Below are positions 7,983 to 19,494 of a DNA stretch of 19,751 bases, one piece after another. Positions within the stretch are counted from its first letter, which is position 1; each line of letters starts with the position of its first letter. This DNA comes from a virus (taxonomy: Duplodnaviria > Heunggongvirae > Uroviricota > Caudoviricetes): IMG/VR virus record IMGVR_UViG_2734482585_000002; one strand, given 5' to 3'. A program made the position numbers and the translations under genes. The notes under the pieces are model-generated. The model had not been told where the DNA came from, searched no databases, and saw only the letters and a program-made list of their open reading frames with translations.

Positions 7983-8813
7983 ACCGGACTCCTCCTGCGA
8001 TCCCTTCTGATACTGTCATCAGCATTACGTCATCCTCCGTCATGTCCGCCACATCCGGGGAAGCGGGGATAACTTCATTCCCGTCCGGGCCAAAGCGGAC
8101 ACCTCCGGCAAGCCCTGCCGCTTTCTGCATCAGCACATCATCTTCAGGCTCTTCGTCAGCCTCGCGCCGGTTCAGCAGACTGAAATCCAGCGGATGCATC
8201 TCCGGATCGCTGAAAAACAGGCTGAGCACGGTGTACGTCAGCCCGGAAAAGTGCATATCCAGCAGAACATCATGAAAATAATGGGTACTGTAAAAGCGGT
8301 GCCAGTCGGCATACTCCGTGGATGACATCCCGGCAAGCATGGCGCGCCAGTCGGGTCGCCCCATCTCACGCGCCAGTTTCAGGGCAAAACTCAGCTCACC
8401 GTCGAACACTTTCCCGCAGAAACAGGCTCTGCAGGCCCGGCGTCCTCTGCCTGTTCAGGAGCATCATTCACCACAAACTCATACATACCGGACAGCCGGT
8501 ACACCACGTTTTCAGCATGAGAAATTGCCTCTGTGGGCCAGGTGGTAAGCACTTCCTGCTCAATCTGTTTAACGGCTTCATTCATGGACGGCATCTGCGT
8601 CTTCTTCGGATGGTTATGCCACAGGGACATCGCAACCACAAAAGCGCCGGTTCTGATGGCGTCTTCCACAGTAAACTTCCGGTTGCTGTCTGACTCCGCC
8701 TGTTCTGCCTGCCGTTTCATCAGGTCGAGATGCTCAATACGCTGCAGGGCTGACAGTTCAGAAAGCGTGACGGTCACACCGTTATGTTCAAATGATTCGG
8801 TTTTCAGGAACAT
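7975..8813 (-). CDS. T: Tail assembly chaperone G-T fusion made by a programmed -1 frameshift at 8409-8415; the T-frame part ends at 7975
   Basis: The -1 frame downstream of the slippery site encodes ...YGVRVGAIGESVTMLMVDDETMDAVDPSA...-like lambda T sequence (ORF 7975..8409); its stop overlaps the H start by 8 nt as in lambda. Confidence 0.88.
8391..8813 (-). CDS. G: Tail assembly chaperone G
   Basis: 140 aa ORF MFLKTESFEHNGVTVTLSELSALQRIEHL... ending ...VSAGKCSTVS. Confidence 0.95.
   Translation of the reverse strand: MFLKTESFEHNGVTVTLSELSALQRIEHLDLMKRQAEQAESDSNRKFTVEDAIRTGAFVVAMSLWHNHPKKTQMPSMNEAVKQIEQEVLTTWPTEAISHAENVVYRLSGMYEFVVNDAPEQAEDAGPAEPVSAGKCSTVS
8409..8415 (-). promoter_or_regulatory. 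Slippery heptamer G_GGA_AAG for the G to G-T -1 ribosomal frameshift
   Basis: Plus strand reads ctttccc (reverse complement GGGAAAG), placed on the Gly-Lys codons of ...SAGKCSTVS near the G stop. Confidence 0.85.
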
Positions 8814-12786: not shown

Positions 12787-13253
12787 TTACACTGGTGTGT
12801 TCAGCAAATCGTTAACGGCNNNNNNNNNNNNNNNNNNNNNNNNNNNNNNNNNNNNNNNNNNNNNNNNNNNNNNNNNNNNNNNNNNNNNNNNNNNNNNNNN
12901 NNNNNNNNNNNNNNNNNNNNNNNNNNNNNNNNNNNNNNNNNNNNNNNNNNNNNNNNNNNNNNNNNNNNNNNNNNNNNNNNNNNNNNNNNNNNNNNNNNNN
13001 NNNNNNNNNNNNNNNNNNNNNNNNNNNNNNNNNNNNNNNNNNNNNNNNNNNNNNNNNNNNNNNNNNNNNNNNNNNNNNNNNNNNNNNNNNNNNNNNNNNN
13101 NNNNNNNNNNNNNNNNNNNNNNNNNNNNNNNNNNNNNNNNNNNNNNNNNNGCGCCGCGCTGGCGTTCTCGCCCTCCGTCGCTTGCACCACGCCAGTAACG
13201 TCAGCCTGCGAAGCAGTGGCTGAAACAGTTGTTGATTGAGTCTCTTTGGTCAT
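12787..13253 (-). CDS. Nu3: Scaffolding protein Nu3, in-frame internal start within C; middle lost in the N-run
   Basis: ATG at 13251-13253 (MTKETQSTTVSATASQADVT...) preceded by AGGAGGG RBS; shares the C stop. Confidence 0.85.
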
Positions 13254-14177: not shown

Positions 14178-17858
<3,681 letters not shown>

Positions 17859-17884
<26 letters not shown>

Positions 17885-18404
17885 TCAGCAACCCCGGTAT
17901 CAGTTCATCCAGCGCGGCTGCTTTGTTCATGGCTTTGATGATATCCCGTTTCAGGAAATCAACATGTCGGTTTTCCAGTTCCGGAAAACGCCGCTGCACC
18001 GACAGGGGGATCCCGTCGAGAATACTGGCAATTTCACCTGCGATCCGCGACAGCACGAAAGTACAGAATGCGGTTTCCACCACTTCAGCGGAGTCTCTGG
18101 CATTTTTCAGCTCCTGTGCGTCGGCCTGCGCACGCGTAAGTCGATGGCGTTCGTACTCAATAGTCCCTGGCTGGAGATCTGTCTCGCTGGCCTGCCGCAG
18201 TTCTTCAACTTCCCGGCGCAGCTTTTCGTTCTCAATTTCAGCATCCCTTTCGGCATACCATCTTATAACGGCGGCAGAGTCATAAAGCACCTCATTACCC
18301 TTGCCACCGCCTCGCAGAACGGGCATTCCCTGTTCCTGCCAGTTCTGAATGGTACGGATACTCGCACCGAAAATGTCAGCCAGCTGCTTTTTGTTGACTT
18401 CCAT
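17859..18404 (-). CDS. Nu1: Terminase small subunit Nu1
   Basis: 181 aa ORF MEVNKKQLADIFGASIRTIQNWQEQGMPVLRGGGKGNEVLYDSAAV...; ATG at 18402-18404. Confidence 0.96.
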
Positions 18405-18416
18405 TGTTCATTCCAC

Positions 18417-18541
18417 GGACAAAAACAGAGAAAGGAAACGACAGAGGCCAAAAAGCCCGTTTTCAGCACCTGTCGTTTCCTTTCTTTTCAGGGGGTGTTT
18501 TAAATAAAAACATTAGGTTACGGCGAAGAAGAACGGAAACG
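18417..18541 (-). promoter_or_regulatory. cosB terminase-binding region: R1 (~18427-18444), R2 (~18470-18487, inverted), I1 IHF-site region (~18491-18520), R3 (18524-18541)
   Basis: Three copies of the CGTTTCC(N)TTC element in the lambda arrangement; R1 and R2 form a 15-nt perfect inverted repeat (18430-18444 with 18470-18484); an AT-rich segment lies between R2 and R3. Confidence 0.85.
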
Positions 18542-18581
18542 CCTTAAACCGGAAAATTGTCATAAATAGCGAAAACCCGCG

Positions 18582-18593
18582 CGCCTTCCGCCC
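18582..18593 (-). promoter_or_regulatory. cosN cohesive-end 12-mer, variant: GGGCGGAAGGCG on the minus strand
   Basis: Flanking sequence on both sides (ggttacg / cgcgggttttcgc on the minus strand) matches the lambda cos junction as I recall it; the 12-mer sits between them. Confidence 0.8.
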
Positions 18594-18629
18594 CGTAACC
18601 TGTCGGATCGCCGGAAAGGACCCGCAAAA

Positions 18630-18792: not shown

Positions 18793-19026
18793 ATGTCAAC
18801 GAAGAACAGAACCCGCAGAACAACAACCCGCAACATCCGCTTTCCTAACCAAATGATTGAACAAATTAACATCGCTCTTGTTCAAAAAGGGTCCGGGAAT
18901 TTCTCAGCCTGGGTCATTGAAGCCTGCCGCCGGAGACTGTGCTCAGAAAAAAGAGTTTCGCCTGAAGCAAACAAAGAAAAGAGTGACATTACTGAATTGC
19001 TCAGAAAACAGGTTAGACCAGATTGA
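18793..19026 (+). CDS. Small right-end accessory protein, YlcI/YnfO-like (DUF3950-like, possible ribbon-helix-helix fold), 77 aa
   Basis: ORF MSTKNRTRRTTTRNIRFPNQMIEQINIALVQKGSGNFSAWVIEACRRRL...; N-terminal ~50 aa match the small ORF next to cos in lambda and DLP12/Qin-type prophages as I recall them; weak AGGG RBS. Confidence 0.75.
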   Translation: MSTKNRTRRTTTRNIRFPNQMIEQINIALVQKGSGNFSAWVIEACRRRLCSEKRVSPEANKEKSDITELLRKQVRPD

Positions 19027-19083
19027 AGCAATTTAGATAATCGTGCAGACTACGCCCCCTCATATCACATGGAAGGTACTACA

Positions 19084-19494
19084 ATGGCTCAGGTTGCCAT
19101 TTTTAAACAAATATTCGATAAAGTGCGAAATAATTTAAACTATCACTGGTTTTATTCTGAACTAAAACGTCACAATGTCTCACATTACATTTACTATTTA
19201 GCCACAGAGAATATTCATCTTGTTCTTGAAAACGATAATACGGTTTTAATAAAAGGACAGGGTAAGGTTGTAAATGTAAGATTTTCAAAAAATAAATGCC
19301 TTATAGAAGCCACCTTAAAAGGATTCAAATCAGGAGAGTTATCATTTTACGAATACAGGAAAAATCTTGCTACAGCAGGGGTTTTCAGATGGATTACAAA
19401 TATCCACGAAAACAAAAGGTATTACTATACCTTTGATAATTCATTACTCTTTACTGAGAACATACAGAACACTACACAAATATTTCCGCACTAA
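19084..19494 (+). CDS. YbcV-like protein (DUF1398 family), function unknown, 136 aa
   Basis: [58 protein letters not shown]...; second ATG chosen because GGAAGG lies 7 nt upstream; roughly 75% identical to the lambda/DLP12 homolog as recalled. Confidence 0.8.

Follow-up and report, generated by a model that had tools for sequence, protein, structure and literature searches.

A naturally recurring right-half variant of the lambda-type cosN site, probably functional, in a prophage left arm

The stretch of DNA analysed here (IMG/VR record IMGVR_UViG_2734482585_000002, Caudoviricetes; 19,751 nucleotides, hereafter the window) represents, when its minus strand is read, the left arm of a prophage of the lambda type, and the 12-bp cosN site at its positions 18582 to 18593 carries AAGGCG in place of lambda's CGACCT at bp 7-12. 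Based on comparisons with viral contigs, complete bacterial genomes, plasmids and published lambda genetics, we propose, with a probability of about 0.85, that this cosN is a functional and naturally occurring lambda-type allele. By its sequence, it adds to the natural cosN variants already known to differ from lambda in the right half.

On the minus strand, positions 18593 to 18582 (bp 1 to bp 12 of cosN) read GGGCGGAAGGCG, the lambda counterpart of which is GGGCGGCGACCT; the plus strand of positions 18582-18593 is CGCCTTCCGCCC, and the junction in lambda orientation is CGACAGGTTACG-GGGCGGAAGGCG-CGCGGGTTTTCGC. This cohesive-end sequence aligns with the annotated cos site of DE3. Its right half (bp 7-12, 18582..18587) is changed at bp 7, 8, 9, 10 and 12 and retains C11, while its left half (bp 1-6, 18588..18593), GGGCGG, is the same as that of lambda in the alignment. 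Hence five of the 12 positions differ from the canonical lambda 12-mer, and all of them are confined to bp 7-12, as in a natural right-half polymorphism. The CG on the 5' side of the top-strand nick (bp -2 and -1, 18594..18595) and the CG beside the bottom-strand nick (bp 13 and 14, 18580..18581), both on the minus strand, are conserved, and conservation of the flanking bp -2 and -1 has been reported previously (Feiss et al., 2015, PMC4669245).

A 401-bp region around cosN of the window was aligned with those of DE3, 2H10, Turner and PhiR70_1, of which DE3 is a lambda derivative with the cos site annotated in its record. Lambda/DE3, 2H10 and Turner all possess GGGCGGCGACCT, and the flanks on either side of cosN are identical between them and the window. 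A preliminary description of this DNA, which had noted that five of the six second-half bases differ between identical flanks and had given the lambda 12-mer, is borne out on both counts by this alignment. The total number of differences across the 401 aligned columns is 12-22, and a permutation test puts the probability that any run of six columns contains at least five at 1e-5 to 6e-4; the clustering of the cosN changes is not due to chance. Despite the changes, GC content is 10 of 12 in both GGGCGGAAGGCG and GGGCGGCGACCT, and the nearest-neighbour dG of the variant, -17.8 kcal/mol, is close to the -18.2 kcal/mol of lambda. Rotationally symmetric cosN bp number 8 of 16 in the variant and 10 of 16 in lambda: the variant retains the flanking pairs and pair 2/11, loses pairs 3/10 and 6/7 (two of lambda's five) and gains pair 4/9.

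The elements that surround cosN are those of a lambda-type cos, all on the minus strand. In addition to GGGCGG and a CG at both nick positions 12 bp apart, the heptamer GGGTCCT is found at 18617..18623 (bp -30 to -24), about 24-30 bp upstream of cosN and identical in the lambda/DE3 alignment, which by its sequence and position we take to be cosQ, the packaging-termination signal. A complex cosB, consisting of R3, an inverted R2 and R1, lies at the correct distance from cosN. R3, the TerS anchor site, is AGGCGTTTCCGTTCTT (18529..18544, bp 50-65; coordinates taken from PMC9026076) and is the same as in lambda. The 16-mer AGAAAGGAAACGACAG (18470..18485, bp 109-124) is an inverted copy of the 16-mer CTGTCGTTTCCTTTCT (18429..18444, bp 150-165), which is assigned to R1; because a 16-bp sequence is common to R2 and R1 and inverted in R2 (PMC9026076, PMC4669245), AGAAAGGAAACGACAG is assigned to R2. 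The adjacent terminase genes Nu1 (TerS; 17859..18404, 181 aa; Pfam Phage_Nu1, E = 2.4e-101) and A (TerL or gpA; 15959..17884, 641 aa; Pfam GpA_ATPase and GpA_nuclease, i.e., the ATPase and endonuclease domains) are both intact, and Nu1 starts at bp 190, the same position as in DE3. An intact lambda-family portal protein is also found in the window by Pfam, and the lengths of the other head and tail open reading frames are lambda-like. Two runs of N, at 1164-1443 (280 nt, in J) and at 12820-13150 (331 nt, in C/Nu3), artificially break both of these reading frames; a truncated or IS-disrupted J was considered as a sign of a cryptic prophage and rejected, as the break is a run of N and not a mutation.

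Compared with the lambda cos, GGGTCCT, the spacer, the flanking CG, cosN bp 1-6 and 11, R3, the R2/R1 16-mers and the Nu1 spacing are identical or nearly so, and Nu1 and gpA of the window are of lambda type; the unlikeness to GGGCGGCGACCT is found at the five right-half positions given above. Changes within bp 7-12, with the left half and flanking CG kept and with a terminase that is not allele-specific, are also the pattern of N15, phiD326, Gifsy-1 and mEp213/LLS. The bp that differ are 9 and 12 in N15 and phiD326 and 8, 9 and 11 in Gifsy-1 (PMC4669245), while the cosN of LLS/mEp213 is reported to be GGGCGGCGCGCT (PMC12315714); the window variant, with five, changes more positions than these published alleles. 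It shares G at bp 12 with N15 (GGGCGGCGTCCG in the N15 record) but differs from it at bp 7-10. Unlike the N15-type cos, which has a simple cosB with a single R3 and a TerS start at bp 89, the cos of the window has the lambda-type complex cosB and the Nu1 start at bp 190, and it is not of the N15 type.

The variant recurs in many phages and prophages. The exact variant 27-mer is present in 51 IMG/VR contigs. A variant 48-mer, centred on the changed bases so that canonical cos was unable to seed megablast, is found at 170 places (16 on plasmids) in 159 of 5,426 complete E. coli genomes, while the canonical 48-mer is found at 8,400 places in 4,480 of the 5,426; the variant share is about 2% of the lambda-flank cos junctions in complete E. 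coli genomes. A base-by-base check of six sampled genome matches revealed the exact 12-mer in five and AAGGCT in the sixth, that of O111:H8 SF4-1. In PLSDB, 23 plasmids of E. coli, E. fergusonii, E. albertii and Shigella sonnei carry the variant. Two deposited phage genomes, PhiR46_1 and YDC107_1, possess the identical 12-mer together with a lambda-type cosB/Nu1/A module. PhiR46_1, the host of which is ECOR13 according to its record, is an N15-like linear phage-plasmid with telL/telR, ParAB, a primase and the full lambda head/tail module, its viability resting on the record metadata; YDC107_1 is an N15-like phage-plasmid classified as Ravinvirus, with lambda-type Nu1 and A. Unlike these telomere-bearing plasmid prophages, the window element, in the stretch analysed, has lambda-like right-end genes (YlcI-like and DUF1398/YbcV), and its left flank differs from theirs at bp -6 and -11. 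The allele is found in independent phages and prophages and is not a private lesion, and the suggestion of an altered cohesive end in the preliminary description is supported in the form of a recurrent natural allele. A full-text literature search with GGGCGGAAGGCG and its reverse complement returned no match; the dedicated cosN survey of Vahanian et al. in 2017 (Virology 509:140), which lay outside that search, may well list this 12-mer.

When the 12-mer was left free in the search pattern, at least 120 IMG/VR contigs matched, and among the matches listed 117 are canonical, two are variant and one is GGGCGACGACCT. The last, found in IMGVR_UViG_2778261513_000005 (L075), has G changed to A at bp 6 and is the sole left-half variant among the matches listed (at least 120). 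One 56-kb metagenomic contig, IMGVR_UViG_3300045988_113976, contains the variant cos twice (L143 and L147) with identical flanks, and may be a concatemer or an assembly longer than one genome. Two cos sites in the same orientation are found in another contig, IMGVR_UViG_2623620496_000002 (L139; positions 12504 and 239, minus strand): the variant cos with a lambda-type cosB and, about 12.3 kb farther downstream, a canonical cosN after which comes a cosB-like sequence of another kind, TATGAGCCTTTTTCGGGTGCTGG. The right flank of this canonical cosN is also found in L184, where it is joined to the allele CAGACG; the second cos of L139 may belong to a cos-bearing satellite (PICI) or to a second element.

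Enumeration of the IMG/VR right halves that stand between GGGCGG and lambda-type flanks shows that AAGGCG, in 51 contigs, is by far the most frequent non-canonical allele. TGACCT is found in two contigs (L178 and L179), and AGACCT (L180), CAACCT (L189), CGACCG (L183), CAGGCG (L185), AAGGCT (L182), CAGACG (L184), AAGCGT and CTGACG are found in one contig each. C11, the symmetry partner of G2, is retained in all enumerated non-canonical alleles except AAGCGT. Five of the six distinct alleles that are a single step from CGACCT or AAGGCG carry the base of the other major allele at the changed position (AGACCT, CAACCT, CGACCG, CAGGCG and AAGGCT, but not TGACCT), which has a probability of about 0.008 under random position and base in what is a small sample. 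Scans for interior alleles, with C at bp 7 and T at bp 12, recovered only CAACCT and therefore left the stepwise path from one major allele to the other incomplete.

The terminase genes linked to the variant were compared with those linked to the canonical cosN by extracting Nu1 and gpA from all loci with sufficient downstream sequence. Among the full-length gpA sequences (26 variant- and 37 canonical-linked) and the Nu1 sequences (26 and 46, respectively), no residue tracks the allele, the largest residue frequency difference between the alleles being 0.35. Variant and canonical loci have two gpA and four Nu1 sequences in common, and there is no sign of an allele-specific terminase in this comparison. 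The gpA of the window is identical to that of another variant locus (L138) and differs by 2 aa from a canonical-linked gpA. A 641-aa gpA open reading frame is found in 26 of the 29 variant loci with enough flanking sequence, and pairwise codon differences among the variant-linked gpA genes amount to 10,261 synonymous and 1,766 nonsynonymous ones, the pattern expected of genes that are kept in use. Clustering of the variant loci by sequence gives 18 groups upstream of cosN, whereas 45 of 50 loci share a single cluster downstream, in cosB/Nu1; the allele thus travels with a lambda-type cosB-Nu1-A module that has been joined to many right arms. The canonical comparison set was gathered by a longer left-flank pattern, and its upstream uniformity is partly built in. 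Three cosB positions, +71, +97 and +137, are in partial linkage with the variant allele. Phage Perceval (OV696612.1; record ends, L195/L196) starts at the canonical GGGCGGCGACCT and has the cosB haplotype of the window (71C, 73G, 78C and 97C), which shows that cosN alleles and cosB haplotypes reassort.

Published lambda genetics provides a framework for a functional allele of this kind. Differences at bp 7-12 are described as "common" among lambda-like phages, and the conservation of cos ends that the preliminary description took as its premise consequently holds for the left half and the flanking CG but not for the right half (PMC4669245). Many right-half mutations have a minimal phenotype: C11G is without effect, although G2C at the symmetric position costs about 10-fold in yield, and the functional asymmetry between left and right halves of cosN depends on the proximity of cosB (PMC4669245). 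With lambda terminase, yields from cosN-lambda and cosN-N15 are equal, the lambda and N15 terminases are without cosN specificity, and in the authors' words "maintenance of bp positions 7-12 is not" under selection (PMC4669245).

Based on this framework, we propose that TerS (gpNu1) would bind R3 of cosB, which is unchanged and correctly spaced in the window, and would position the endonuclease of TerL (gpA). The bottom-strand nick at bp 12/13 would then be set by the distance to cosB and by the flanking CG rather than by bases 7-12, so that changes at bp 7-12 would be tolerated when TerL is positioned by R3-bound TerS (PMC4669245), and the top-strand nick would depend on the left half GGGCGG, also unchanged in the window. 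Virions would carry 12-nt 5' overhangs of GGGCGGAAGGCG and its complement CGCCTTCCGCCC, the mutual annealing of which is predicted to be about as stable as that of lambda ends. The allele is carried with the cosB-Nu1-A module by integrated lambda-like prophages as well as by N15-like linear phage-plasmids. We infer that nicking occurs at the same two positions as in lambda and that the window prophage is packaging-proficient; nothing in the data suggests a packaging defect, and nicking at the variant is predicted. Nicking could nevertheless be somewhat less efficient than at lambda cosN, given that two symmetric pairs (3/10 and 6/7) are lost and one (4/9) is gained, and a modest cost in efficiency is possible because replacement of five of six bases goes beyond the single changes and the 2-bp N15 allele of the published tests. 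The frequency of about 2%, far below that of the canonical allele, could reflect such a mild cost or history only.

Other explanations of the clustered change are much less probable. A local assembly or sequencing error in a single genome, raised in the preliminary description, has the unusual clustering and nothing more in its favour; it is refuted because the identical 12-mer is found in many assemblies made independently of one another, which differ in laboratory, host and country and include 51 IMG/VR contigs, at least five complete E. coli genomes and two phage records, and its probability is next to nil. The same description raised the possibility that the change inactivates cosN in a packaging-defective cryptic prophage with a decaying cos, and in its favour are the alteration of five of six bases within the nicking site, the loss of two symmetric pairs and the rarity of the allele beside its canonical counterpart. 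Decay, however, predicts scattered and private mutations, whereas one and the same allele sits on many backbones and is shared by at least 51 viral contigs, some 159 genomes, 23 plasmids and deposited phage genomes; 26 of the 29 loci have a full-length linked gpA, the differences in which are mainly synonymous, and the remaining cos sites and the terminase genes of the window are intact. As right-half mutations in lambda are also phenotypically mild (PMC4669245), a cryptic prophage of this kind is unsupported and very unlikely. Scarcely tenable is co-evolution of cosN with a terminase of new nicking specificity, which would place these phages in a distinct packaging-specificity group. Such groups are known among lambda-like phages (lambda, 21 and N15), and the partial linkage of cosB +71, +97 and +137 to the allele would fit; but R3, which determines specificity, is the same as in lambda, Perceval combines the same cosB haplotype with canonical cosN, and the lambda and N15 terminases lack cosN specificity (PMC4669245). 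This explanation is rejected on the comparison of terminase genes above, in which neither protein has a residue that follows the allele and some gpA and Nu1 sequences are shared unchanged by variant and canonical loci.

A functional allele may in addition be kept as a recombination barrier that partly isolates its lineage from co-resident canonical-cos prophages, an addition that we regard as unlikely. Hybrid lambda/variant ends would be mismatched at 5 of 12 positions, pair at about 7 of 12 and cyclise poorly, when a mismatch at 2 of 12 already lowers yield 4-fold and the GGGCGG stem alone amounts to about -8 kcal/mol, and encounters should be frequent, given that canonical cos is present in 4,480 of 5,426 genomes. 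Against a barrier, exchange across the allele boundary does happen, as the allele is found on many backbones and with terminase proteins identical to those of canonical loci; the cost of mismatch is transient according to Feiss et al. (PMC4669245), and neutral drift at unconstrained positions explains the data with no need for selection. Also unlikely, and put forward here as a tentative idea, is that CGACCT and AAGGCG are partly incompatible end types, the rare intermediates being footprints of heteroduplex repair or nick translation. That five of the six single-step alleles are chimeric fits partial repair of mismatched ends as a small-sample hint only, and the same pattern could also arise from selection for tolerated bases, e.g., G at bp 12, which is also found in N15. 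The reading that we prefer remains a functional natural allele.

The allele bears on how cos sites are annotated and used. Because about 2% of the lambda-flank cos junctions in E. coli carry it, annotation or termini pipelines that seek the exact lambda 12-mer should not count a non-canonical right half as defective. Oligonucleotides designed for lambda cohesive ends (GGGCGGCGACCT or AGGTCGCCGCCC) would not fit variant phages. If function of the variant is confirmed experimentally, the tolerance of lambda terminase for changes at bp 7-12 would widen from one to three changes to five of six. CGACCT and AAGGCG also form a natural and strongly mismatched pair for studying the cyclisation and repair of cohesive ends, and, if they are indeed partly incompatible end types, right-half divergence would act among lambda-like phages as a post-recombination barrier that is transient and can be measured, and the intermediates would be a natural record of cohesive-end mismatch processing.

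Several minor features of the region were also observed. The hexamer AAGGCG is found a second time in the window, at the 5' edge of R3 (TTTAAGGCGTTTCC; 18540-18545, minus strand, cos bp 49-54). This is probably a coincidence, because only 6 bp match and the hexamer lies outside the TerS-contacted bp 55-63. Two candidate origins of the cosN hexamer, templating from the R3-edge AAGGCG and inversion (AGGTCG versus AAGGCG, with four of six positions matching), were rejected as not beyond chance. In the spacer between cosN and R3, position 18559 of the window (cos bp 35) is C, where most relatives have A; this C is shared by 9 of the 172 other loci and has no evident function. On the plus strand, the phage right-end region that adjoins cos encodes a 77-aa open reading frame (18793-19026) and a DUF1398 (YbcV-like) protein (19069-19494). 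At the corresponding position in APEC E14033, a carrier genome, a YlcI/YnfO-family gene and the serum-survival gene iss are found.
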